From a virus, in IMG/VR virus record IMGVR_UViG_3300010885_049703, positions 32,001 to 96,000 of that record: DNA of 64,000 bases. One strand, given 5' to 3'. Positions within the stretch are counted from its first letter, which is position 1. Each line of letters starts with the position of its first letter. Both the position numbers and the translations under genes were made by a program. This document shows positions 51,278 to 64,000 of this stretch, one piece after another. The notes below the pieces were generated by a model, which worked only from the letters and a program-made list of their open reading frames with translations, was not told the DNA's origin and made no database searches.

Positions 51278-51985
51278 TTAGATTATGTTGTGAGTACGTA
51301 CATATTGTAGCACATGATTGGCCCAAAAGCAATGAGCATCAGCACCAAAATGCCAACTATCAGGATTTACTGTGGCAAATCCGTTGTTTTTCAGCACATT
51401 ATTGTAGGTCTGCATAGGATCATAAGGTGCAAGGTAATGATTGCCCCAATCCTGTTGAGTTGTTATTTTGCTAAAATCCGAATTGCCATTGAACATCACA
51501 TGACGTATATTGAGCTGTTGTAGCTCTTGATGAAATTCCCAAATTTCACTATGAGCTTGTTTGGCGCATTGTTGCCAATCCACATCAGCAATGAATTGTT
51601 GGTAACGTGATTGTAGATGTTCAGGAACATGATCTATGCCTGACGCATTGACTTGGTAGTACACACCCTCGTCCAACCATTCCTCGCGTTCCCATGTTGA
51701 CCACTGTATGATCATAAAGGTGTCTTTGAGTGCTTGCGGAGTTTGCTCGGCAATCCAACTGCGTGTGGTACGCATGATGCGTTGATTTGAGCTGGCTGCT
51801 TCGGCATCGCACCAAAGTACTGCGTACAGGGCATTGGCTATTTCGCACCCATAACTCACACGTTCGTTTTCAGGATGTGGGCGTCGTCCCAAGCCCCAGA
51901 AGAATGGATCATCTTCGGCAAAGCAATGTGGATTCACTGCTTCGGCAGCAGCACTGTGACTGTCGCCATTTACGTAAATTATCAT
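51278..51985 (-). CDS. SGNH hydrolase-like protein
   Basis: VNGDSH, ASSN.RI, WHFGADAH. Confidence 0.6.
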   Translation of the reverse strand: MIIYVNGDSHSAAAEAVNPHCFAEDDPFFWGLGRRPHPENERVSYGCEIANALYAVLWCDAEAASSNQRIMRTTRSWIAEQTPQALKDTFMIIQWSTWEREEWLDEGVYYQVNASGIDHVPEHLQSRYQQFIADVDWQQCAKQAHSEIWEFHQELQQLNIRHVMFNGNSDFSKITTQQDWGNHYLAPYDPMQTYNNVLKNNGFATVNPDSWHFGADAHCFWANHVLQYVRTHNII

Positions 51986-52273
51986 TTATTTGTCATTGAT
52001 TAAATGTGTGTACTTTAACAAAAACATTGTACGCATGGGTTCACTGTAAAAGTCAAGCATGATGTTTCGCTCAACAGAATAAGGTCTTTCACCTCGTGCC
52101 TCATTGAGAAATTCTGGGTGGTCAGTATACTCTGTGTGTTCTCTTGGAGTGAATCCCAAGACTTCGCGCATCTTATCGCGAAGCATTAGCACACTGGGGG
52201 TGTTTTTATATTCTTCAGTCATGTGCTGGCGTATGATACGCCACTGCCGGGGAGTAAGTTTAATTGGCTTCAT
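51986..52273 (-). CDS. small phage protein (F.LK family)
   Basis: ends LDFYSEPMRTMFLLKY. Confidence 0.6.
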   Translation of the reverse strand: MKPIKLTPRQWRIIRQHMTEEYKNTPSVLMLRDKMREVLGFTPREHTEYTDHPEFLNEARGERPYSVERNIMLDFYSEPMRTMFLLKYTHLINDK

Positions 52274-52472
52274 TGATCACTCGCTCACTGAATCTCAACG
52301 CAAATAATAGAGCATCGTCTTTATCTTCGAACTCAAACTCCATGGCGCGACTTGTGGGATGAAACATAAATCTATTTCCAGGAAGACCAAACATTTCCAC
52401 AGTCCAACTATAAATGTCGGCATGAGTGATATGAGTATCACCTTCTCGCCAACTCAAATGTACAGCGGTCAT
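52260..52472 (-). CDS. small phage protein (F.LR family)
   Basis: ends FEFEDKDDALLFALRFS. Confidence 0.6.
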   Translation of the reverse strand: MTAVHLSWREGDTHITHADIYSWTVEMFGLPGNRFMFHPTSRAMEFEFEDKDDALLFALRFSERVINEAN

Positions 52473-52870
52473 CAGCTTACTTCACTGCGTCCGTCACCAA
52501 GGTCCTTGCTGCGAACATAGCGTTGTGGATTCATTGCTTGTTCTTGTTCATAGGTCTCTAACACTACATTGCGACATACATTTTGAAACCAACGATCAAC
52601 GATGGCAGCATCTGAGTCGTCCTTTTTCATCATGTATCCTGCACGTACCAAATTAGATATAAACTTTTCGTTCCAATCTAATTCAAAACTTCCTTGATGT
52701 AGATTTTCTGGATCAATGTCCAGGCTAAGGATAGCAATGTATGGTTCGTCTCGTTCGTTGGCAAGTTCTTTGGCTGTTTTTGGTGGCGGTGATGGTGGTG
52801 CTTTCGTGCGAGGCTCGGAAACTGGCTTTGGTGGTTTTTTTGGTTTAAAAAATTTATCTAATAATCCCAT
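52472..52870 (-). CDS. hypothetical phage protein
   Basis: GSFELDWNEKFI..IVDRWFQNVC. Confidence 0.65.
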   Translation of the reverse strand: MGLLDKFFKPKKPPKPVSEPRTKAPPSPPPKTAKELANERDEPYIAILSLDIDPENLHQGSFELDWNEKFISNLVRAGYMMKKDDSDAAIVDRWFQNVCRNVVLETYEQEQAMNPQRYVRSKDLGDGRSEVS

Positions 52871-52888
52871 GGCAATGCCCTTTTAAAT

Positions 52889-53104
52889 TTAGTTATTAGA
52901 CTCGTCGATTCGACCCCAACGTATCTTGAGCCATATTCTTTCATGAATATAATAGTCGATGCTTAATAAAATGTGCAGTGCTGTGGCAAATCCGGTGGCA
53001 CTGCTGATATCACCGGTAAACAGATATGTCCAGAAGATTGTAAATGCCCATGCTGTGATTCTATATGATACCATACGTGCTATTGTTCGTTGTTTTGTTT
53101 CCAT
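52889..53104 (-). CDS. DUF2061-like small membrane protein
   Basis: RT..R..SYR...YYIHERIW.KI.WG. Confidence 0.75.
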   Translation of the reverse strand: METKQRTIARMVSYRITAWAFTIFWTYLFTGDISSATGFATALHILLSIDYYIHERIWLKIRWGRIDESNN

Positions 53105-53277
53105 TCTTTACCCCAATTGATTTTCAACCATACACGCTCGTGTATATAATGTGCCAGGGTCATAAAAATATTGATTATAATTGCACCACTTAATCCGGTC
53201 CATGCTGCAGTAATCAATGTTGCCACCACACGCCAAGTGATTGCTCTTACTATTGTTCTTTTGTGTAATTCCATCAA
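53080..53277 (-). CDS. DUF2061-like small membrane protein
   Basis: RTIVRAITWR...HYIHERVW.KI.WG; tandem paralog. Confidence 0.75.
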   Translation of the reverse strand: MMELHKRTIVRAITWRVVATLITAAWTGLSGAIIINIFMTLAHYIHERVWLKINWGKEWKQNNEQ

Positions 53278-54143
53278 GTTCCCCAGGCGTTGCGCCAGAT
53301 ATCTACTTGTAATCTAGGACTGTATCTATAGCCACGCTTCATTGCCAACTCAGCTACCTGCGGCACATTGAAGTTGTATAAGTCAGCAACGCCGCCCGTG
53401 GGCATCAAATACACAGGACCACCAAAGCCAGCTTTGCGGAATTGATACACCGCTTCGTCAACATCTTTCAAATCATCATCAGTGGACACAACAAACTTGA
53501 GATAGGTCATGCCCACCATCTCATAACTTTTTACAACTTCGGGACGTATAGCATCTTCCCAACGCTCTCCCGAGCATGGTAGTTTTGCACTGACACTGAA
53601 AGTCAAACGATCGTAATCTCTGCCGTGTCTAGTGAATTCTTCAAACAGGTATTCTCTAACATCTTCATGCAAAAACTGAGTACCATTGGTTTCAAATGTT
53701 ATGTTACGCAAGCCTTGTTGGCGACATTTTTCGATCAGCTTGGGATATTCAACTTGATAGCCCAGCAATGGTTCACCGCCTGTGATCACCAGGTGAACAT
53801 CGTCACTGATGTTGTCTGGACTCCATTTGTTCTTGGGAATCATGCCATGCATACGATCAGCGATTTCATCCAAGGTCATAAACGGTGACAGATGTTTGAA
53901 TGCCGGATGCCATGACGCATAACTGTCACAGCCTGTTCGTGCCAGCGGCAAGTCGTTGTAGGTTTTGTAAAGATGTACGTCGGCAGCAATTTCGTCGGGT
54001 TCAGTGGTCTTCTCACCACGCGGTAAGCCAAATCCACGACACTGAAAGTTACACCCAAATGTACGCATGAAAACGCTGGGCACACCAGCCCAACGTCCTT
54101 CACCTTGTAGACTATAAAATATTTCAGCTATTTTAAGTTGCAT
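53274..54143 (-). CDS. queE: 7-carboxy-7-deazaguanine synthase
   Basis: EIFYSLQGEG..G.PSVFMRTFGCNFQC..(insert)..CDS, ITGGEPL, ETNG, PRLQ. Confidence 0.9.
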   Translation of the reverse strand: MQLKIAEIFYSLQGEGRWAGVPSVFMRTFGCNFQCRGFGLPRGEKTTEPDEIAADVHLYKTYNDLPLARTGCDSYASWHPAFKHLSPFMTLDEIADRMHGMIPKNKWSPDNISDDVHLVITGGEPLLGYQVEYPKLIEKCRQQGLRNITFETNGTQFLHEDVREYLFEEFTRHGRDYDRLTFSVSAKLPCSGERWEDAIRPEVVKSYEMVGMTYLKFVVSTDDDLKDVDEAVYQFRKAGFGGPVYLMPTGGVADLYNFNVPQVAELAMKRGYRYSPRLQVDIWRNAWGT

Positions 54144-54167
54144 GATATTCCTTGAAAGTTTTGTGCG

Positions 54168-54196
54168 AGTATAGCACAAGAAATAAAATTAGTCAA
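54168..54196 (-). promoter_or_regulatory. sigma70-type promoter of queE
   Basis: TTGACT-17 nt-TATACT. Confidence 0.65.
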
Positions 54197-54563
54197 TGTC
54201 TTTTAAGAAAGGTTTTAATTTGGGAGGTTTCCAACCTTCAGGTTTGAGAACTTTGCCATCCTTGCGCTTGTTGACCTTACCAGTTTCTGAATCAATTTTG
54301 GCAAAGTTTGTTTGCATGACTTCGTTCCAGGCAGCTTCGGCATCTACTCCCATGCTGTGCAATGCTCCGGTGGTCACTACCAACAGATCAATCAATGCAT
54401 CCAATTGTTCCACTCGGTCTGCTGCCTGAACAGCTTCTTTGAGTTCATGCCATTCTTCTTTGATGAGATTCACATACATACGATACTGCTTGGGTTTGAA
54501 TTCATCTACTGTTTGATCACATGCCAGCATGAATCGTTTTTGATCTTCAAAAATATTTGTCAT
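54189..54563 (-). CDS. MazG-like (PRA-PH-like) NTP pyrophosphohydrolase
   Basis: LIKEEWHEL..DALID..EV..NFAK..KDGKVLKP. Confidence 0.85.
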   Translation of the reverse strand: MTNIFEDQKRFMLACDQTVDEFKPKQYRMYVNLIKEEWHELKEAVQAADRVEQLDALIDLLVVTTGALHSMGVDAEAAWNEVMQTNFAKIDSETGKVNKRKDGKVLKPEGWKPPKLKPFLKDID

Positions 54564-55108
54564 TTAGTCCACCATTGTTCCCAGGGAAATACAATCCATT
54601 GCGGATCTGCCGCTTTATTAATGTTACATGCGGTATAATTAACATCAAGTTTGCTTTCACTTGATTCGTTGTCAACTAGTGTGGCCACACGTACATTTGT
54701 GCCCCATATGTGATTCCACCTATCATGATTGGGCAAGCAACCGCTGGGCCAATCTTGTTGAATCCAGTTCAGTGTGGCACCGGTGTCGTTGATATCATCA
54801 ACTATGAGTATGTTTTTGGCGTTGATACTATAATCAAATTCTGCCAACAACTGTTCATCCTTGGGAACGTATCCAAACGCATCTTCGGCCATCCATAAAT
54901 TGCTTTCCGATTCATTGCCATCGCGCAGACTCACTTTGAGTGTCTCCATGCGCACTCCCAGGTATTGACTGATGAGATTGGCCGGAACAAGTCCACCACG
55001 AGTAATACCCACTACATAGTCAGGTCGCCAGCTGTCGTTGTGAATCTGTCTGATAATCTCCTGTGTGAAGTTTTCTACATCACGCCAGGTGTAGTATACC
55101 CGTTTCAT
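54560..55108 (-). CDS. purine phosphoribosyltransferase (Gpt-like type I PRTase)
   Basis: VGITRGGLVPA, ILIVDDINDTGAT (PRPP loop), WIVFPWE. Confidence 0.88.
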   Translation of the reverse strand: MKRVYYTWRDVENFTQEIIRQIHNDSWRPDYVVGITRGGLVPANLISQYLGVRMETLKVSLRDGNESESNLWMAEDAFGYVPKDEQLLAEFDYSINAKNILIVDDINDTGATLNWIQQDWPSGCLPNHDRWNHIWGTNVRVATLVDNESSESKLDVNYTACNINKAADPQWIVFPWEQWWTK

Positions 55109-55893
55109 AGTTTCCTTGCTTTGATTAATAAATGCCAACCCAGATATTCTTTCACTGCATCACGCATGGTATCACTCATGGCAGCAAACCAAGGTTCCAA
55201 TTCATAGCGACCTTCGCGGTATGCTGGTATGTTATACATAAAACAGTGATCCTGCCTAATACGTTCTATTTCAAACTGACCATTGAGCATCTGATAAATT
55301 TCACCTCTAGTAAATGCTTCGGCGTATGGACATTCAGCCTGTGCTTCAAACTGATCCAGCCCCTTTTGAATCATTGCATACTTCCAGGAGTTTTTAGCAT
55401 ACACCATAAAACGGAACTCGCCCCCAGGTGCCACTAAACTGTGAATCTCTTGAATGTGTTGTGCAATATTGGGTGAATGATGTATGACACCATAACTGTA
55501 CACAAGATCAAACTTGCCAAGATTTTCTATTGCTGTTGCATCATCTGGATCAAGTAAATTGATATTGCGGAAATCGCCATGTAAATCTAGAGTTTGGAAT
55601 CGGTCACGACAGATGTTTAAACTAGCATCACTGATATCAATGCCTGTGTATTCAGCACCGTGACGCACAAACTGTTCAGCGTCAGTTCCAATACCACACC
55701 CAATCTCCAACACCCGCTTGCCTTGCCAGCGATGAAACTGTGCAAAGTCAAGTATGTGTGGCTCTACACGATAACGACGTGCAGTGACTTCTTCAAAGTA
55801 CTCTACCGAACCCAAGGGTCGTTGACTGTGACGAATGTTGCAGGGTTGGCGATCCCAATAGGATTTTATTTTTTCTTCAAGTTGTTGAGACAT
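55105..55893 (-). CDS. class I SAM-dependent methyltransferase
   Basis: VLEIGCGIG, GIDIS, FDLVYSYGVIHH. Confidence 0.9.
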   Translation of the reverse strand: MSQQLEEKIKSYWDRQPCNIRHSQRPLGSVEYFEEVTARRYRVEPHILDFAQFHRWQGKRVLEIGCGIGTDAEQFVRHGAEYTGIDISDASLNICRDRFQTLDLHGDFRNINLLDPDDATAIENLGKFDLVYSYGVIHHSPNIAQHIQEIHSLVAPGGEFRFMVYAKNSWKYAMIQKGLDQFEAQAECPYAEAFTRGEIYQMLNGQFEIERIRQDHCFMYNIPAYREGRYELEPWFAAMSDTMRDAVKEYLGWHLLIKARKL

Positions 55894-56743
55894 TAACTGA
55901 TCCTGATGACATATTGACTTCTCTTTTAGTTGTAGTCATTTGCTTGTTGATGTCGTTAGCTTCAAGTTTTTCCCAGGGATTCTGTTGGTTGATCTTGACA
56001 TTCTCCCAAAAAGTAGTATCTATGCCCTTTGATTTCAAATAGCCGGCAATTTTTTCAGTGTCTGACATTCTATGATTAAACCATTTGACACTATGAAAAT
56101 CTTCGGGACTGTCAGGCTTACCCTCCAGCATTGGACGATTCTTAAATGTTTCATCATGGTTGTTGCCGGTGAGATCGTACCGATCATGCTCAACCCACAC
56201 TGGAATACGCTCCAGGATGTCCACCATGTATGCGATTTGACTCATCCAAGCGTCACTGATCTGATGTGGACTCATATATCCAAACATATCAAGCCAGTCT
56301 CTGGGAATAATTGGAAAAATACTGTAAGGATGTTCTCTATGAGTATGCACAGCCAATAACTTGAATTGACCTTGATACTTCATAATTTCTACATTCCAGC
56401 CTTGACTTTGCATCACAGCATCATCATTCCAGAACATTAACCATGCGGCATCGCTGTTTTTAGCTAGTTCTGTAACGTACTCATTAAGTCTAATATACCC
56501 CATGGGTTCAAAGCTCATTGCAGTATAATGTACACCTCGATCATCTAACAATGGTTGTAAAGATTCTTCCCAGTGTTTGATACCAACTTCGTCATCGTCA
56601 TCAAAGCCCAGGATAATTTGTATTGTTGATAGGTCTTGAACACGATTAATTAAACTCATTATACTGCGTGTCAGCGTCATTGTGCGCCCGCGAGTGGGCA
56701 ACAAAACTGCTATGTCATACTCATATGAATGTTGTTTTTCCAT
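55877..56743 (-). CDS. GT-A (family 2-like) glycosyltransferase
   Basis: IAVLLPTRGR, GFDDDD, WNDD. Confidence 0.7.
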   Translation of the reverse strand: MEKQHSYEYDIAVLLPTRGRTMTLTRSIMSLINRVQDLSTIQIILGFDDDDEVGIKHWEESLQPLLDDRGVHYTAMSFEPMGYIRLNEYVTELAKNSDAAWLMFWNDDAVMQSQGWNVEIMKYQGQFKLLAVHTHREHPYSIFPIIPRDWLDMFGYMSPHQISDAWMSQIAYMVDILERIPVWVEHDRYDLTGNNHDETFKNRPMLEGKPDSPEDFHSVKWFNHRMSDTEKIAGYLKSKGIDTTFWENVKINQQNPWEKLEANDINKQMTTTKREVNMSSGSVNVSTT

Positions 56744-56757
56744 TTATTCCTCAAATA

Positions 56758-57255
56758 TTATGCAAATAAGTCTTCGTTCCAATGTCTATGTCCCTCGCGG
56801 AAAGCCATGTTACTTTGTGTTTCACGTACTTCTACTCGATAACACCACAAACGTTCTGCTTCACCAGGTCCCCACATATCTGGAATATACACTCCATTGA
56901 CATACTTGTAAAGCATATCGGCTAGCCCCTCGCAGCCTAATCGTGGAAGAATGGTGAGTTTGGCCATGTTACGCTGTTGTAACAGTTTAAATGTCTCCAA
57001 TTCTGGATCATCTTGTGCAACTAACAAGGTGTGATCAAACTGATCTTCTAAAATCTTCTTTAGTTCTTTGAGTCCACCGTAGTCAGCAGCCCAATTGCGC
57101 ACATCTAAGTTATCGGTACCAAAGTAAAACTTCATGCTGAATGCATAGCCATGTATTAGATTGCAGTGGCTATCAGCACGCCATTGCCGGTAGGCACAGG
57201 GAAAGGCATTGTGGTATTCTTTGGTACTAGTATAATTGTATGTAACAGATTGCAT
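56758..57255 (-). CDS. queD: 6-carboxytetrahydropterin synthase-like
   Basis: HCNLIHGY, DYGGLK, FDH, VEVRET. Confidence 0.85.
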   Translation of the reverse strand: MQSVTYNYTSTKEYHNAFPCAYRQWRADSHCNLIHGYAFSMKFYFGTDNLDVRNWAADYGGLKELKKILEDQFDHTLLVAQDDPELETFKLLQQRNMAKLTILPRLGCEGLADMLYKYVNGVYIPDMWGPGEAERLWCYRVEVRETQSNMAFREGHRHWNEDLFA

Positions 57256-57258
57256 TGT

Positions 57259-57326
57259 TTTCTCCTATAAGTTAATATAGGCTTGCAGAGTTTGTATAGC
57301 GGGATGAATGCTCTAAAGGCCGCTGT
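57259..57326 (-). promoter_or_regulatory. preQ1-I-like riboswitch candidate with SD-sequestering hairpin
   Basis: AGCGG-loop(..CAUC)-CCGCU-AUACAAAC-UCUG, then CCUAUA/UAUAGG hairpin over AGGAG. Confidence 0.55.
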
Positions 57327-57335
57327 TGAAAACTA

Positions 57336-58025
57336 TTATATATGGTTTTCTCGGACTTTGTCTACATTATAGGTAAACACAGTTAGATATTTTTTATAAT
57401 GATGTTCGCTGCTACTGCAATGGAGTTGAGTACGATCCCAAGAAATCACATCGCCAAGATTCCAATCAACGATTTGTTCTATAGTCAGTCCGTGTAAATC
57501 TTCTATGGGCATATAGCTCAGATAGTCATGATATGTTTTTTCATCAAATTGATGATCGTTTATATTAACCACTTGACTATAATCAGCAACAGTACCCTGA
57601 GCTAATCCCAAAACATTTGATGCACGATCAATGGATTGTTTGAGATCAAGTCTTGAAAACTTAGTACTGGCACCAAACCAATAGTTATCAAAAAACACGG
57701 TTGATGCTTTTGGGGAGAAATCCAACGGTATTAAAAAAGATGGTCCCAAACATTCAGCAGACCACTCACGATGTGAATCCACATGTACTTTTTGATTATA
57801 CGAACGTTGATAGAAGAAAATTAATTCATCGACTGCCCAATTAAAATTTGCCAACTTGTTGATAATATCAGTAACTATTTGTTGTGGCCATTCGTCAACA
57901 TCCCAGTGAGGATGCTTGCTTGACATAGTGGGACGATGATCCCAAGGACCATCTTCCTGATCAAAATAATTTTTAAGACTAGCAATATCTTCCGGGGATA
58001 CTATATCCTTGTACACTTTAGCCAT
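57336..58025 (-). CDS. 2OG-Fe(II) oxygenase-like protein
   Basis: HVD...WDRTQLHCS...K facial-triad pattern. Confidence 0.55.
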   Translation of the reverse strand: MAKVYKDIVSPEDIASLKNYFDQEDGPWDHRPTMSSKHPHWDVDEWPQQIVTDIINKLANFNWAVDELIFFYQRSYNQKVHVDSHREWSAECLGPSFLIPLDFSPKASTVFFDNYWFGASTKFSRLDLKQSIDRASNVLGLAQGTVADYSQVVNINDHQFDEKTYHDYLSYMPIEDLHGLTIEQIVDWNLGDVISWDRTQLHCSSSEHHYKKYLTVFTYNVDKVRENHI

Positions 58026-58449
58026 TGGGATTTTTATAACCTTCTCGTTTATAATTGGCCTGTCCAGCGATTACACCACGTACCCCGCCAACAGGATCTT
58101 CGCAGTCTCCATGACGTCGGGGTATCAGATGTACATGTGGATACATCACAGTTTGCCCGGCAGCCTCGCCAAAGTTAATACCAATGTTAAATCCATCACA
58201 TTCACCTTGCTCAACCAATTTGTTGCCATGGGTTGTAGCCGAATACACTGCCTCATTGATAGTACTCACGGTATTATATCTCGGAACAAATAGTAAATGT
58301 CCTGGAGTAACTGGATAGCGATCACGATATACTACTACATGAAAATCTTCCCATACAACATCATCCCATGGTGCAATACTTTGTTTTTGAGCTTGTTCTA
58401 AATTATTCACACCAGTCATCGCTTTCCATGTAAACAGATGCTTGTTCAC
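58018..58449 (-). CDS. HIT family nucleotide hydrolase
   Basis: YPVTPGHLL, AGQTVMYPHVHLIPRR; start uncertain. Confidence 0.9.
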   Translation of the reverse strand: MNKHLFTWKAMTGVNNLEQAQKQSIAPWDDVVWEDFHVVVYRDRYPVTPGHLLFVPRYNTVSTINEAVYSATTHGNKLVEQGECDGFNIGINFGEAAGQTVMYPHVHLIPRRHGDCEDPVGGVRGVIAGQANYKREGYKNPNG

Positions 58450-58630
58450 GAGCAGATTCTATGCTTTCTGCAACAACAGTGAGAGTAGCAACACCGTGTT
58501 TGATATGAATGTCAAACGGCACACGGCCCATGGGCAACCAACCATCGTCAACTCGCAAACGAACTTTGTAGCTACGCATTTGTTGTGCTCGGCTTATGAT
58601 TTCTTGAGTATAGTCGGCTGCTGTTTTCAT
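58403..58630 (-). CDS. hypothetical protein
   Basis: small ORF in operon. Confidence 0.55.
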   Translation of the reverse strand: MKTAADYTQEIISRAQQMRSYKVRLRVDDGWLPMGRVPFDIHIKHGVATLTVVAESIESAREQASVYMESDDWCE

Positions 58631-58631
58631 A

Positions 58632-58826
58632 TCAGTCCCGCGGCATTGTTGCTGCTTCTTTGATCAGCTCTACAAGTTCTTCAACTGTTGATACTATGAT
58701 TTTAGTATTCTTCCATTCGTCGTTGTCATCACGTCCGCCAACTTCAATCATAAATCCGTTGTCGTACATGTTGATAGTAAATGCTTCATTTACTTTAGTG
58801 AGTTTGTCACTGATTGTTGTTGCCAT
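58632..58826 (-). CDS. hypothetical protein
   Basis: AAGGAG SD; YDNGFMIEVGGRD. Confidence 0.65.
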   Translation of the reverse strand: MATTISDKLTKVNEAFTINMYDNGFMIEVGGRDDNDEWKNTKIIVSTVEELVELIKEAATMPRD

Positions 58827-58849
58827 GTTCTCTCCTTGATTAGTTGAAT

Positions 58850-59182
58850 TTACTTTTTTTTACCAAATAGTGATTTTGACTTCTTTGCTAATTCTTGCTG
58901 CCGCTTTTTTTCTGCTGCTTCTTTAGCATCGGCTGCTTTTTTGGCTGATTCTCGTTCTCGTTCAATACGAATTGCATCTTCTTGACCTTGTGCAATCATT
59001 TTTTTAAACAGCAGAATTACTCGATCCTTTTCTCGCTCTGAAATTATCTTGACAGCTTCTACTTTTCCTTCGTAACTTTTGGCACTGTCTAAGAAACCTT
59101 CGGGTACTGCTAGTTTCTTTTTCTTGGGTTTTAATGCATCTAACTTCTTTTTAAACTCTTCTGGGGTGTCTTCTGTGGACAT
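58850..59182 (-). CDS. Lys/Glu-rich hypothetical protein
   Basis: AGGA SD; highly charged. Confidence 0.6.
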   Translation of the reverse strand: MSTEDTPEEFKKKLDALKPKKKKLAVPEGFLDSAKSYEGKVEAVKIISEREKDRVILLFKKMIAQGQEDAIRIERERESAKKAADAKEAAEKKRQQELAKKSKSLFGKKK

Positions 59183-59255
59183 GGTTTTTATTTCCTATAA
59201 TATAGTGAGTTCCCCCACTATACTATGTATCAATTAACCATGCTGGATTATCCCA

Positions 59256-60023
59256 TCATCTAGGCGCAAACTCTTGTTGTAGTTTGATATTGTCCATGAA
59301 CTCTTTCTTGACACTGGGGTCATCTTTGAATGCACCTGTTAGCACAGTGGTTTGTGTCAATGAACTATGTGCCATGATGCCGCGATTCTCACAGCAACCA
59401 TGTGTGGCTTGTATGTACACACCTACGTTTTTACTGCCAGTGGCCTTCATGATCTCTCTAGCGATATCATTGCACAACTCTTCTTGTAGTGTGCCACGGC
59501 GAGCACACCACTGAGCAATGCGAGTATACTTGCTCAAACCAATGAGCTTTTGAGCAGCAATGATTCCAATGTATGCAACTCCGCTGACTGGTTGATGATG
59601 GTGACTGCACATACTACGAAGCTCGCTGCGAACAACCAGCATGCCTTCATAACGGTCTGTTGTGTCGTTTGGAAATGCTGTTGCATCTGGAGCAGGTTCG
59701 TATCTTCCTGCCATGATTTCGTTAAAGTACATCTTGGCTAATCTACGTGCTGTGCCTTGACTGTTAGGATCTGTTTCGCGATCAATCAGCAATCGATCTA
59801 GCACAGTTTCAAATGCTTCTTCGGCTTCGTCAATTAGTCTAGATTTCTGATCGTCATTAACATAACCACTGATGTTATCACCGGCCCAGAAACGTTTCTT
59901 ATCATGTTTCATTTGGGTACGTATTGCATCAGCTAGATATGATTCTTGATAATCTTTATCACCTGCTGTTGTATTTGACGTCGGTTCGTCATCGCCGTCT
60001 ACATACATTTTTTCATATACCAT
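59256..60023 (-). CDS. folE: GTP cyclohydrolase I
   Basis: SMCSHH, IGLSK, LQE, HGCCENRG. Confidence 0.93.
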   Translation of the reverse strand: MVYEKMYVDGDDEPTSNTTAGDKDYQESYLADAIRTQMKHDKKRFWAGDNISGYVNDDQKSRLIDEAEEAFETVLDRLLIDRETDPNSQGTARRLAKMYFNEIMAGRYEPAPDATAFPNDTTDRYEGMLVVRSELRSMCSHHHQPVSGVAYIGIIAAQKLIGLSKYTRIAQWCARRGTLQEELCNDIAREIMKATGSKNVGVYIQATHGCCENRGIMAHSSLTQTTVLTGAFKDDPSVKKEFMDNIKLQQEFAPR

Positions 60024-60079
60024 ATTATCTCCGAGTTTTAGACGTGGATGTCTATAGGTTAATTATAAACATATTTAGA

Positions 60080-61231
60080 TCACTTGTCAAGCCCAAGTTC
60101 TTCTTCTAGTTGGCGAACTGGAGAACTCCAGTCATTGGTGAAGTTTCTTATGTACTGAATGTTATCTAAATCTTTCTGGGTTTGTAAAACAATTTCTTCA
60201 TTGGCAAAGTGTATGACCAATCCTCGACGTAAGGCAGTTTCCAAAAGTTCCTGGCGATAGTCATTGTCATCGGGTAAACTGAAAATACTAAACATGATGA
60301 GATGATTGACATTGCTGGTGTGAATCATGCTTTTCAAATGTGCATGATTTAGTCCTTCGTTCTCACCGTGTTGATAGGGAAACTTGTATCCTTTCTTGGT
60401 ACAATAATGTCGAACTGCCAAGGTTTGGAAATGCAGATCAATGTTGCGTGTTTTGACACCATCGTACTCCATGTAGCACACTACAATATCTTTGGATTCA
60501 TCAATAGATACCACTGCTTCTGAACTTTGATCGTGCAGTGGTCTAAAATATGCACCAGGCCATTTGCGGTGTGGCTGACCATCTCTAACCAGCAATCTGA
60601 TATCAATACTGACACGAGTCTTATCAGTGCGGTTGGGAATATTGCCATGAATGTGTTCTTGGAAGAACAAATGCGCCTGACCAGGTTGCAATGTAATTGG
60701 CCAACTGTTGTCAGCACAAGTAGAGTCTAGGTATTCATAGCTCCAGTTTTCGCGTTTGGCCTGGCGTGTTATTTCCCTACTCTTATCCAGATCCATGATC
60801 TGCATTGAGTTAGATTCAAAACATGGAGTGAACGGCATCCACACAGTTCTAAGTCCAAGTCCGTTGCCTACCCACCGGCCTTGATGGAAGATCAACACAG
60901 CACCAAACTTGTCTTGATTGGGTATCAAGATTCGTAAGTTACCAAATTTTTGAATTAACACATCGGTGCCCAGTTGTGGAACAACATGCTCAGATACAAT
61001 TTCATCAAAGTGTTGATAAAAATCAGTTTTCAGCAAGGCATGACTCACAGTGTTTTGAACACGTTGTATGTCATGCGGTGGAATAACTTCATGTAGTGTA
61101 TCCAGTGATGTGGCATTGGGATACAATTTTTGAATCTCACCTAAAATGATAGCCGGCATGGGATGCTGGCCTAGATCATAATCTAAGGTTTGATTATCAA
61201 ATGCTGCTTGGTCTTGAGTCAATTGTGTCAT
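60080..61231 (-). CDS. Fe(II)/2OG enzyme (PhyH-like) with HxG motif, fused to a C-terminal domain resembling 'sporadic carbohydrate cluster' proteins
   Basis: FHQGRW..VWMP..HIHGN.PN..RVSIDIR; C-terminal RHYC..FSIFSLP..IHFANE. Confidence 0.65.
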   Translation of the reverse strand: MTQLTQDQAAFDNQTLDYDLGQHPMPAIILGEIQKLYPNATSLDTLHEVIPPHDIQRVQNTVSHALLKTDFYQHFDEIVSEHVVPQLGTDVLIQKFGNLRILIPNQDKFGAVLIFHQGRWVGNGLGLRTVWMPFTPCFESNSMQIMDLDKSREITRQAKRENWSYEYLDSTCADNSWPITLQPGQAHLFFQEHIHGNIPNRTDKTRVSIDIRLLVRDGQPHRKWPGAYFRPLHDQSSEAVVSIDESKDIVVCYMEYDGVKTRNIDLHFQTLAVRHYCTKKGYKFPYQHGENEGLNHAHLKSMIHTSNVNHLIMFSIFSLPDDNDYRQELLETALRRGLVIHFANEEIVLQTQKDLDNIQYIRNFTNDWSSPVRQLEEELGLDK

Positions 61232-63003
61232 AGTGTTTCCATCCTATTTTTAATAAGTCCTTTTCTTCTTGCAGTGTAAAAATCCCCAGTTGGACTTGAA
61301 CTTCTGGCAGTGAATTTATACATAGTAGATTCATGAGCTCCTGTTATTATATTATAACTGGTTGTCAAAGTCAACGGATACTGTTGATCAAAGTCAACAA
61401 TAAACCCGCGTTGTAATTCAATCAAATCTTGGTCAACTTCTGTCAACATTGACAGAGCCGACAACGCCAACTCGGCAGCGTCTTGTTGATGCTGGTACAT
61501 GAATTCATAACTGATGCTATGAATTGCATGCCCTCCCACTCCATCAATCACTCCTTGTGTGAGATACCGATGTGTTTTGCTACGCACAGTATGATAATGT
61601 TCTTGAAATACTGTACTAGTGGATATCAATTTAAATAACTGATCATACAACGTTTGATAGGCAATATTTTTAACTTGTCGAGCATATCTTGCAATAATTT
61701 GTGTATATCCCATGGCATGCCAATGTATGATCATCCAGGCATAGACATATCCTTCAATGATATCGTCTGTGGTCATAGTGCTGGTGCCTGCAACGATCTC
61801 AGTTTGCTCGGCCACCGCATCTTGATCACGACTATCAAGATTCATATAATCTTTGACCCATATGGTTTTTAATCCATACTGTTGTCGACTCTGTGCAGTG
61901 GCCAATTCACTATTCTCTAACATCTGAGCGAACCATATGTCTATGGAATTATGTTGCCCCAACTCCAATAACTCACAAAGTCCTTGAATCCACGTATGCT
62001 TGGTTTCTAATGGTAATCCGATGATTACTTCGGTGTATGTCGGCACTTGATATTGTTCACTGAGCTGCATGACTTCTCTGATATTGTTGACATCAAGATT
62101 TTTTCTTTTGATAGCCTCTAACGTAGATTCATTCATACTCTGTACGCTGACAGTAACACCACGCCCATATGGTCCTAGGGTCTTGGCAATTTCAAATATT
62201 GCATTGGTACTATTTTTGGCATACTGTATGTTGATGACTTCTATTGCGGAGTTTTCAGCTCGTTGTCGCATAAGCCTGCTGATCTCTAAATCTCTGTCAA
62301 CGAAAATTCCAAAATTAGCATCTGCACAAAAAATATATGCCACTTGATGTGAAGCAGCCCACTCCAACTCACTGTCAACTCTTTCAAGCCCAAAGCGTTT
62401 TATTTTACTGTATGTCACTCCGCCCCAGTCACAAAAGGTACAAGCATATGGACAACCACGGTTAGTTTCCAAGGTCATTGCCCAAACTGCATCAGGGTTT
62501 GCTGATATTATATTGTCAAACACTCCTGTGAGATACGGACTTGGTATATCTAAGTCTTGTAATCGATCAGCAGGATATAACGCATCCACGGTGTTGTTGT
62601 GTAATATACTTCTCAGTATCTTTACAAAACTTTCTTCACCTTCGGCCAGTGCAATAGCATCAATAAACTGATGTGCATACATTTGCGAGGAACTCTGAGG
62701 CCCACCAAATATTATCACACAATCAGGAAATTTAATTTTTACTTGTCGGGCCAACTCCAAACAATACTGTTCGTTCCACATGTAGCAGCTGAAGCCACAC
62801 AGCACAGGATCATCAAGCTCACAAATGACTTGATCAATCGGGTCTCGGCGAAAGTACAATCCAGCAAGTTGAAAATTATCAACTATGTCTGTGAACTGAC
62901 CGGCATAACTCCAAAGACATCCGGCACTGTAAGGTAACCAATAATTAGGCTTGTTCTGAAACTCTACAACATATTGCGGTTGAAACAAGTATACATTCTT
63001 CAC
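61228..63003 (-). CDS. B12-binding-type (class B) radical SAM protein
   Basis: GFSCYMWN, FGGP, EGEE, ETNRGCPYACTFCDWG, DANFG; GTG start coupled to the upstream stop. Confidence 0.87.
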   Translation of the reverse strand: MKNVYLFQPQYVVEFQNKPNYWLPYSAGCLWSYAGQFTDIVDNFQLAGLYFRRDPIDQVICELDDPVLCGFSCYMWNEQYCLELARQVKIKFPDCVIIFGGPQSSSQMYAHQFIDAIALAEGEESFVKILRSILHNNTVDALYPADRLQDLDIPSPYLTGVFDNIISANPDAVWAMTLETNRGCPYACTFCDWGGVTYSKIKRFGLERVDSELEWAASHQVAYIFCADANFGIFVDRDLEISRLMRQRAENSAIEVINIQYAKNSTNAIFEIAKTLGPYGRGVTVSVQSMNESTLEAIKRKNLDVNNIREVMQLSEQYQVPTYTEVIIGLPLETKHTWIQGLCELLELGQHNSIDIWFAQMLENSELATAQSRQQYGLKTIWVKDYMNLDSRDQDAVAEQTEIVAGTSTMTTDDIIEGYVYAWMIIHWHAMGYTQIIARYARQVKNIAYQTLYDQLFKLISTSTVFQEHYHTVRSKTHRYLTQGVIDGVGGHAIHSISYEFMYQHQQDAAELALSALSMLTEVDQDLIELQRGFIVDFDQQYPLTLTTSYNIITGAHESTMYKFTARSSSPTGDFYTARRKGLIKNRMETL

Positions 63004-63518
63004 TGCTGCAGCCCAGTGATTTGCATAGTATACCTGGAATGATTGCCAAAGTTTCCGGCTATGTGCGTGGCAGTTCCAGTCCAGGACACCCAATCACCGG
63101 CTCTCCAGTCATCAAAGCATTGACCATCACAGTGAAAGATTTGTCCCATTTGCCAGTTGGTCAAAAATATCAACACTCTTGTGATAGTTTCAATATCTGT
63201 AACATTGTGATTCTTGCTGTATCTTCTATACAAATCACCATGCAATGGTTGTATAAGTCCGGGCTGCATGTGATGAACAACTATAAATTTTTCTTTGAGT
63301 TCAGGCCACGGATCTTGGTGCCAAAAGTTATTGGTGTTGATGTCATCGGCAACTTCCAGTGAAATCATATCCCAATAGCGATCACGATCAGCTACATCAC
63401 TCCAGACATAGATATCTTCGCCACGACTGGGACTGTCAGACATATCCTTGCGTTGATAAACCAACTGATCTAATGTCTGTTGATTCCAAATTGGATCAAT
63501 ATGTCCGTGTCTGATCAT
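63000..63518 (-). CDS. 2OG-Fe(II) oxygenase-like protein
   Basis: PLHGD...THIAGN...RYTMQITG. Confidence 0.7.
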   Translation of the reverse strand: MIRHGHIDPIWNQQTLDQLVYQRKDMSDSPSRGEDIYVWSDVADRDRYWDMISLEVADDINTNNFWHQDPWPELKEKFIVVHHMQPGLIQPLHGDLYRRYSKNHNVTDIETITRVLIFLTNWQMGQIFHCDGQCFDDWRAGDWVSWTGTATHIAGNFGNHSRYTMQITGLQQ

Positions 63519-64000
63519 TTTATCTCTAAGTTATTGCGCCAAATTTCTATGGTACGATCTAGACCCTGTGAAAGATCAACTGTTGGCTGCCAGCCCAGCA
63601 ACTGGTGTATGAGATTGTTATTGCTATTCAACCAATAGATCTCACCAGGACGACGAGGTTTTGAATCCCAATGCATGGTTCCTGACCAGCCAATTTTATC
63701 GGCAATCATTGCAGCGTAGTTATCAATGCGTATGGGATCGTTTGGTCCCACAGTCATCACAATACCAGTGCCAACAACATCAGGATTTTCAATCACACGC
63801 ACCCAGGCTTCTAATAAGTCAGTAATAAAAATAAAATTACGATAAGGAGTTCGATAACCAAGGTAGACATGATCAGGATTTTTCAACATTTGTGTTATAA
63901 TTTGTTCAGTGACAAAGAAATCATTGTCACGACGGCCATAGCTATTAGTTTGACGTATAGCAGTCCAAGGAAACTCATGAGATCGATGCATGTACTCAAG
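63515..64000 (-). CDS. NAD-dependent epimerase/dehydratase (5' truncated by window)
   Basis: RQTNSYG, RNFIFITD, RPGEI, LGWQP..LSQGL. Confidence 0.8.
   Translation of the reverse strand, partial: LEYMHRSHEFPWTAIRQTNSYGRRDNDFFVTEQIITQMLKNPDHVYLGYRTPYRNFIFITDLLEAWVRVIENPDVVGTGIVMTVGPNDPIRIDNYAAMIADKIGWSGTMHWDSKPRRPGEIYWLNSNNNLIHQLLGWQPTVDLSQGLDRTIEIWRNNLEIK

Follow-up and report, generated by a model that had tools for sequence, protein, structure and literature searches.

The window described here is a stretch of 64,000 nucleotides, bases 32001-96000 of a 114,259-bp IMG/VR virus record (IMGVR_UViG_3300010885_049703), and its final part carries an operon that combines genes of 7-deazaguanine synthesis with a Gpt-like phosphoribosyltransferase (PRTase) gene. 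Because CheckV rates the record as 33% complete, it roughly corresponds to a fragment of a ~330 kb freshwater jumbo phage. All genes from ~50 kb to the window end, as well as those of the next 18 kb of the record, lie on the minus strand only, with many overlapping stop and start codons. Positions beyond the window are given in L001 coordinates (L001 is genome 94260-114259; window position = 62259 + L001 position). Families were searched with Pfam, PHROGs, NCBIfam and a PDB sequence search, and structures were compared with an AlphaFold (AF2) model and Foldseek. Conservation counts out of 80 refer to the best 80 IMG/VR loci among at least 598 PRTase relatives. The genes of base synthesis, nucleotide handling and base exchange are the following:

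53274..54179, minus strand: QueE-like radical S-adenosylmethionine (SAM) enzyme, 7-carboxy-7-deazaguanine synthase (phrog_2076, 1e-51; five QueE NCBIfam models, 1e-8 to 1e-13, all below cut-off); translation probably starts at an ATG 12 codons inside the listed open reading frame (ORF)
54189..54563, minus strand: MazG/HisE-type all-alpha NTP pyrophosphatase, 124 aa (PF01503, 2.1e-13, above cut-off), with a 4-nt overlap with the PRTase stop
54560..55138, minus strand: Gpt-like type I purine PRTase, 192 aa (PF00156)
56758..57255, minus strand: QueD, 6-carboxytetrahydropterin synthase (PF01242, 3.8e-15; TIGR03367; 1.9e-21 to QueD of the Cellulophaga phage phiST)
58018..58449, minus strand: Hint-type histidine triad (HIT) nucleotide hydrolase/transferase, 143 aa, a core gene (36/80 loci within reach; PF01230, 1.8e-11; HinT/purine nucleoside phosphoramidase models)
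59256..60023, minus strand: FolE, GTP cyclohydrolase I (PF01227, 2.9e-40; NF006824, 1.1e-38)
L001:5261-5710, same minus-strand operon: DpdL (phmmer, 3e-14 to phiST DpdL)
L001:7168-8700, same minus-strand operon: 510-aa protein resembling tRNA-guanine transglycosylase (TGT) and DpdA (TGT motifs and TGT fold)

An earlier note, made from the letters of the window, had recognized FolE, QueD, QueE, the Gpt-like PRTase, the MazG-like and HIT proteins, a methyltransferase and a B12-type radical SAM enzyme, and the family searches confirmed all of them; their genes lie in one minus-strand operon. From family membership, FolE, QueD and QueE would convert GTP into 7-carboxy-7-deazaguanine (CDG). The lack of queC, also reported in that note, extends to the rest of the 114-kb record, in which Pfam searches returned no match to QueC (PF06508), TGT (PF01702) or DUF6610 (DpdA4), and to a 320-kb, 93%-complete relative (G001), which gave no TGT Pfam match and whose sole QueC match, next to QueE, was rejected as an NAD synthase (NadE). 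In another relative (G005), a 208-aa PP-loop protein encoded 10 kb from the cluster (L088:1096-1722) matches QueC over its C-terminus (33.5 bits); it has no counterpart in the 114 kb of the present record. A profile of DpdA3 (A2), made from 22 homologues, matched nothing in this genome or in four relatives. PF01702 gives no match on phiST even at E≤1, though phiST encodes DpdA3, so a blank TGT Pfam search is not evidence that a phage lacks DpdA.

Comparison of the published deazaguanine genes of phiST with every ORF of the record revealed DpdL, which lies with the TGT-fold gene 3.3-7 kb past the window end. DpdL, a QueD paralogue, carries the exact LxxxHRHxF signature (L-ANP-HRH-I-F) where QueD has CxxxHGH. 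The 510-aa protein displays five motifs in the canonical TGT order (DSGGFQ, QG, GWGMGG, HFLG and FDCASP), with D101 (DSGGFQ) and D298 (FDCASP) invariant among 20 sequences. These two residues would form the TGT catalytic Asp pair, an equivalence read from the motifs and not from a residue-level superposition. Its AlphaFold model, built on 20 homologues, reached a pLDDT (predicted local distance difference test) of 83.6 and a pTM (predicted template modelling score) of 0.83, and the best 50 Foldseek matches in the PDB were all tRNA-guanine transglycosylases (E ~3e-8, probability 1.0). The fold search alone settles the assignment to the TGT superfamily, since profile comparison was not significant. 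The model points to a new, very divergent TGT/DpdA-like family, with at least 7,970 metagenomic members, none of which has a Pfam domain. No dpdA is in view inside the window, as the earlier note had stated; beyond it, the TGT-fold gene lies 5.4 kb past the end, and the proposal of a DpdA-free system was not borne out, the same operon encoding both the TGT-fold DpdA-like protein and DpdL.

Taken together, the window cluster is probably one half of a phiST-type, QueC-less 7-deazaguanine DNA-modification operon, with DpdA-like base exchange, a PRTase as helper and a set of sugar genes. The DNA of phiST is fully modified with 2′-deoxy-7-deazaguanine (dDG), by a system comprising FolE, QueD, QueE, DpdL, DpdA3 and a MazG-like protein (PMC10516641; Cui, Hutinet et al., NAR 2023). 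Like phiST, the present phage is QueC-less and combines FolE, QueD and QueE with a DpdL bearing LxxxHRHxF, a TGT-superfamily enzyme and a MazG-type pyrophosphatase; phiST too has a PRTase homologue (30% identity), elsewhere in its genome. Unlike in phiST, the transglycosylase belongs to the 510-aa family, outside the DpdA3 profiles and Pfam, the PRTase gene lies inside the operon, and a GT4-family glycosyltransferase, a GT-A-like protein, the HIT protein and a sugar dehydratase are integrated, phiST lacking such sugar genes. Because the operon sits in the replication module, its target is likely to be DNA. DpdL, a proposed CDG decarboxylase, would form 7-deazaguanine, and the DpdA-like protein would most likely swap guanine in the phage DNA for the deazaguanine base, freeing one guanine per site. 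The PRTase, the MazG-like pyrophosphatase and the HIT protein may handle purine nucleotides around this exchange: the PRTase would convert displaced guanine into GMP and thence GTP, the substrate of FolE, and at the same time remove a product able to re-enter the exchange. Of the earlier interpretation, the QueC-less deazaguanine cluster with integrated extra enzymes agrees with this picture, the pathway going no further than CDG or one of its derivatives; a PRTase route replacing DpdA does not.

Several points weigh against this interpretation. The modification system of this phage is predicted from its genes, and 7-deazaguanine offers no obvious sugar acceptor, having no hydroxyl for glycosylation. 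The 510-aa protein was missed by Pfam (PF01702, PF20314), NCBIfam, PHROGs, the PDB sequence search and the DpdA3 profile, and an hhalign comparison of its family with DpdA3 was in register and not significant. Since neither of the two DpdA3 comparisons was significant, we infer DNA rather than tRNA as its substrate from the genomic context. Most cultured DpdL phages (the PA5oct group, ACP17, and Rhizobium and Xanthomonas phages) do not carry this PRTase, and immuto_2-6A reaches full replacement without it, so that the PRTase is a recurrent helper at most, and no requirement. In addition, the tight coupling of PRTase and QueE fits CDG as a substrate better than guanine. Finally, the decarboxylase activity of DpdL is only proposed, and the combination of DpdL and DpdA failed to yield dDG in E. 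coli (PMC10516641).

The gene arrangement recurs in the 80 IMG/VR loci and is therefore not due to chance. The order reads PolB, u241, DpdA-like, u169, DpdL, GT4, (dehydratase), FolE, HIT, QueD, GT-A-like, (methyltransferase or dehydratase), PRTase, (MazG), QueE, u132, DUF6071 and 5′-3′ exonuclease. In 78 of the 80 loci the PRTase gene and queE are direct neighbours, and the HIT gene adjoins the PRTase gene in the minimal layouts of related loci. Sixteen of the 17 PRTase contigs of at least 41 kb contain the DpdA-like gene, the exception being a locus at a contig end. Only 17/80 loci have a MazG-like gene at most 10 kb away from the PRTase, which shows that its position varies. The DpdA-like gene of one relative (G003:C1:121890-123416) contains an in-frame TGA. 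Contigs filed in bacterial metagenome-assembled genomes (MAGs), namely L096 (PBPT01000016.1, 335 kb, binned as Neomarinimicrobiota) and L095/L097/L099, contain DpdA-like, DpdL, GT4, PRTase, HIT, FolE, QueE and exonuclease genes, and are probably misbinned jumbo-phage contigs.

Among cultured phages, megablast of the cluster region gave no match, and tblastn found the PRTase in only ten records. One of them, Synechococcus phage BUCT-ZZ01, shows the order QueE-PRTase-hypothetical protein-QueD-FolE-GT-B-(416-aa DSGG protein)-DpdL-GT4. Its GT4 is 65% identical to that of the present phage, and its PRTase gene is translationally coupled to QueE. The 416-aa protein, not significant against the A2 (DpdA3) and A3 profiles, would be DpdA-like from its DSGG, QG, HxLG and YDS motifs only. 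In phiST, the PRTase gene is located beside a dNMP-kinase-like gene and a ribonucleotide reductase (RNR), and DpdA3 and DpdL are separated by a P-loop kinase-like gene. Two Brevundimonas phages display the order RNR-dNMP kinase-FolE-PRTase. The relative G001 also encodes an RNR.

The nearest solved structures of the PRTase are archaeal and E. coli 6-oxopurine PRTases (PDB 1vdm, 4trb and 1a95). As in E. coli Gpt and archaeal GpT, the sequence features a phosphoribosyl pyrophosphate (PRPP) loop of the form VDDxxDTG and a C-terminal WxxFPWE, which is kept. The loop, ILIVDDINDTG, is invariant in 10 sequences and in 84, and its N7-side Asp is kept. Unlike these Gpt enzymes, the phage protein stays below the equivalog threshold, its best NCBIfam model (XPRT PRK09177) giving 51.2 bits against a cut-off of 138, and the gene is fixed next to queE; the jumbo-phage clade is further marked by an RDG motif and by the conserved insertion SNLWMAEDAFGY. 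The nearest cellular relatives are stand-alone chromosomal genes of Sphingomonadales and Bacteroidota, without deazapurine neighbours.

Given the DpdA-like gene in 16/17 contigs and a phiST genome that holds both a PRTase homologue and DpdA3, the PRTase is no substitute for DpdA. A DpdA-type gene accompanies it in all three lineages examined in detail, in BUCT-ZZ01 by motifs only, the Brevundimonas phages being checked with PF01702 and the A3 profile only. This co-occurrence, the retained N7-side Asp and the stand-alone cellular relatives favor guanine salvage, towards which we lean slightly. Almost as likely, the PRTase may resemble TubE and convert CDG into a nucleotide; the sequence cannot separate the two. 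In the QueC-less tubercidin cluster, the PRTase TubE acts on CDG and not on deazaguanine, the carboxyl group being removed later, from the nucleotide (PMC6112128). TubE-like chemistry is favored by the PRTase-queE coupling, the overlap with the MazG gene, the kinase and RNR genes beside the PRTase gene in phiST and the Brevundimonas phages, and the failed DpdL+DpdA reconstitution.

Extended to the whole system, TubE-like chemistry would give a route at the nucleotide level, which we consider possible and rather doubtful. The PRTase would couple CDG to PRPP, DpdL would decarboxylate the nucleotide, and kinases with RNR would produce 7-deaza-dGTP while the MazG-like enzyme destroys dGTP; PolB would then write the base, and the DpdA-like protein would patch leftovers or do another job. 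The substrate of TubE in a QueC-less cluster, the adjacency of PRTase and QueE in nearly all loci with translational coupling in BUCT-ZZ01, the MazG-PRTase overlap in this phage, and the dNMP-kinase-like and RNR genes mentioned above are consistent with it, as is the fact that phiST DNA is 100% dDG, yet DpdL and DpdA3 alone failed in E. coli. Against it stand the DpdA-type gene that accompanies the PRTase in three lineages (in BUCT-ZZ01 by motifs), the housekeeping-like character of the closest cellular relatives and the variable position of MazG; moreover, no UbiD-type nucleotide decarboxylase was seen among the cluster ORFs. Under the reading preferred here, exchange by the DpdA-like protein, the PRTase keeps the part of a helper.

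The remaining genes of the window side of the operon are as follows:

55105..55893, minus strand: class I SAM methyltransferase, accessory (16/80 loci; PF08242/PF13489/PF13649, generic small-molecule methyltransferase matches)
55877..56743, minus strand: probable GT-A-type glycosyltransferase, 288 aa (37/80 loci; phrog_14945, 3.5e-10; motifs)
57336..58025, minus strand: 229-aa protein, possible Fe(II)/2-oxoglutarate (Fe/2OG) oxygenase, accessory (5/80 loci; HVDSH...H motif read from the sequence)
58403..59182, minus strand: three small ORFs (75, 64 and 110 aa) without family matches
60080..61231, minus strand: fusion of a 'sporadic carbohydrate cluster' 2OG-Fe(II) oxygenase (residues 35-233; TIGR04324, 4.6e-28) and a LIC12192-family domain (residues 253-361; TIGR04323, 2.6e-17), accessory (2/80 loci)
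61228..63093, minus strand: B12-binding radical SAM enzyme of the KedN5-like C-methyltransferase type, accessory (7/80 loci; PF04055 and PF02310; NF033712 KedN5 family, 5.1e-51, 173 bits, below cut-off)
63000..63518, minus strand: small Fe/2OG oxygenase of the Asp/Arg-hydroxylase type, 172 aa, accessory (9/80 loci; family profile and motif)
63515..64000, minus strand: NAD-dependent sugar 4,6-dehydratase/epimerase, 3′ half (PF01370, 2.3e-42; PF16363, 5e-40; LegB-type and dTDP-glucose 4,6-dehydratase models); the full gene, 307 aa, is L001:1256-2179

Next to DpdL lies a 401-aa GT4-family glycosyltransferase of GT-B type, assigned from PF00534 matches on some homologues and from the Atlas, and ~80% identical across thousands of metagenomic proteins. 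The methyltransferase, the B12 radical SAM enzyme, the 2OG fusion, the small 2OG protein and the 229-aa protein are present in few relatives only and constitute an accessory cassette. Two of the small ORFs recur in relatives (u64 in 12 loci, u75 in 8). The B12 radical SAM gene, taken as its longest ORF from a TTG, shares 94 nt (63000-63093) with the 172-aa gene upstream; translation therefore probably begins at a codon further in.

PDB sequence searches gave no match for the 229-aa, 172-aa (searched as a single sequence), GT-A-like and GT4 proteins. The family-2 glycosyltransferase proposed in the earlier note is weakly supported: the protein has invariant N-terminal PTRGR and NDDA (DxD-like) motifs and a weak phrog_14945 match, with no Pfam or PDB match. 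Of the three Fe/2OG enzymes claimed there, the 172-aa protein is supported, with an HxD...H motif and a family of 405 relatives in which P91, H93, D95 ... H152 are invariant; its profile matches ALKBH8 (1e-3) and AtsK, and PF05118 was found in 8/31 homologues. The fusion has its family match with H-Q-G at the expected H-x-D, a feature kept in the 3 homologues available. The 229-aa protein, without Pfam, PHROG, NCBIfam or PDB match, is left with its motif and, as a lead only, a nearest named Atlas cluster, DUF6445 (0.94). In the fusion, the distal HGN and R-V-S are kept, a pattern of Fe/2OG halogenases, and the sole PDB match of this domain is the halogenase CytC3, which is not significant (E 0.77).

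That note had also taken the tailoring enzymes to decorate the deazapurine. According to the NCBIfam models, they look instead like sugar-nucleotide enzymes: a LegB/RmlB-type 4,6-dehydratase, a KedN5-family C-methyltransferase, a carbohydrate-cluster oxygenase fusion and a small hydroxylase. The core GT4, the GT-A-like protein and the 4,6-dehydratase would probably build and transfer a tailored sugar, joined in this phage by the KedN5-like C-methylase, two or three oxygenases and the methyltransferase; the acceptor could be the inserted base or DNA. No ThyA-type hydroxymethylase was found in the near-complete relative or in BUCT-ZZ01, which argues against a role of the glycosyltransferases in a ThyA-type hydroxymethylcytosine (hmC)/hydroxymethyluracil route. 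By description, not by sequence, the locus recalls the T4 alpha- and beta-glucosyltransferases acting on hmC DNA, with a phage GT-B enzyme beside base-modification genes; unlike in T4, there is no hydroxymethyl base pathway here. With two glycosyltransferases in the operon and no such hydroxymethylase to provide another acceptor, a sugar-bearing base is a fair hypothesis.

Alternatively, the GT4, the GT-A-like protein, the dehydratase, the C-methylase and the oxygenases could be unrelated to the base and decorate virion proteins or the host envelope, the DNA base being plain 7-deazaguanine as in phiST. This is a serious possibility, to which we give somewhat less than even weight: the base lacks a hydroxyl that could be glycosylated, phiST produces dDG and has no glycosyltransferase of this kind, and the accessory enzymes differ between phages. 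It would leave to be explained that GT4 remains the neighbour of DpdL whether the carrier is a jumbo phage, a MAG-binned phage contig or BUCT-ZZ01, which is T4-like and unrelated, and that no hydroxymethyl-pyrimidine route of the ThyA type gives another DNA acceptor. A bolder proposal, which we regard as unlikely, combines the two unusual chemistries: these phages, abundant in freshwater and on cyanobacteria, would insert a sugar-bearing 7-deazaguanine, glycosylated for example at the electron-rich C7/C8 or at N2 with a 6-deoxy sugar C-methylated and hydroxylated by the accessory cassette, and the PRTase would make the TubE-like deazapurine nucleotide missing from the DpdL+DpdA reconstitution.

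A free deazapurine nucleoside or nucleotide, antibiotic-like or signalling, or a tRNA modification, was also considered as the product in place of a DNA base. The layout of PRTase with FolE/QueD/QueE and without QueC is indeed that of the tubercidin cluster. Compared by description, not by sequence, the operon shares with the clusters of tubercidin (TubE) and toyocamycin (ToyH) a purine-type PRTase of ~190 aa and, with the former, CDG production by FolE/QueD/QueE without QueC. Unlike here, the product is a free nucleoside and the cluster includes a UbiD decarboxylase, a GMP reductase and a Nudix hydrolase; no gene for UbiD decarboxylase, GMP reductase, Nudix or transporter proteins was seen among the cluster ORFs in the family searches. 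The phage operon, by contrast, has a DpdA-like protein and DpdL in a replication module. Its position between PolB and the 5′-3′ exonuclease, and the presence of DpdL with a TGT-fold enzyme, as in phages with proven DNA modification, make such a product very improbable.

Further features were observed around the operon. A promoter-like site matching the sigma-70 consensus perfectly (TTGACA-17-TATAAT, 12/12) occupies the gap before folE (60062..60090, minus strand), and an 11/12 site lies at the expected place before queD (57335-57364, minus strand). These sites are a lead only, because their total count in the region does not exceed that of shuffled sequences. For a preQ1 riboswitch upstream of queD, Rfam gave no match at E≤1 in 52000-64000, and the leader fold is unremarkable, with a z of -1.5, so that this lead found no support. 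Directly upstream of the DpdA-like gene, L001:8697-9503 encodes a 268-aa fusion of an adenosine 5′-phosphosulfate (APS)-kinase-like P-loop kinase and a nicotinamide mononucleotide (NMN)-adenylyltransferase-like domain. With the NAD synthase right after QueE in relative G001, NAD salvage genes seem to accompany the operon. Two DUF6071 paralogues flank the cluster (window 51278-51985 and L001:3374-4093). The first starts with I-Y-V-N-G-D-S-H, like SGNH/GDSL hydrolases, and both may be sugar esterases. The 169-aa protein beside DpdL was considered as a nucleoside deoxyribosyltransferase or DNPH1-like N-glycosidase linking MazG to guanine salvage; with a model pLDDT of 67 and no clear match in Foldseek or a wide VIA search, this assignment found no support.

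The system adds to the known DpdL/DpdA machinery three conserved undescribed parts, namely the 510-aa family, the PRTase at queE and the GT4 at dpdL, and a phage-specific sugar cassette. A literature search found no paper describing any of these three, and nothing relevant on PRTases in phage deazaguanine pathways, on guanine replacement before replication or on more recent DpdA families. Deazaguanine in DNA shields phages from restriction and affects which defence systems detect them, and metagenomic proteins of this module, from large phages of lakes, number in the thousands. BUCT-ZZ01, which grows on S. elongatus PCC 7942 and is the sole cultured phage to combine PRTase, DpdL and GT4, makes the system directly testable. 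The function of the PRTase would decide whether complete guanine replacement precedes or follows replication, a question open since CP220 and phiST. If true, the attachment of a sugar to a DNA purine would be new chemistry that could serve to make restriction-proof DNA and enzyme tools, and sugar-bearing 7-deazaguanine would represent a new class of purine DNA hypermodification together with a pre-replicative pathway of purine replacement.

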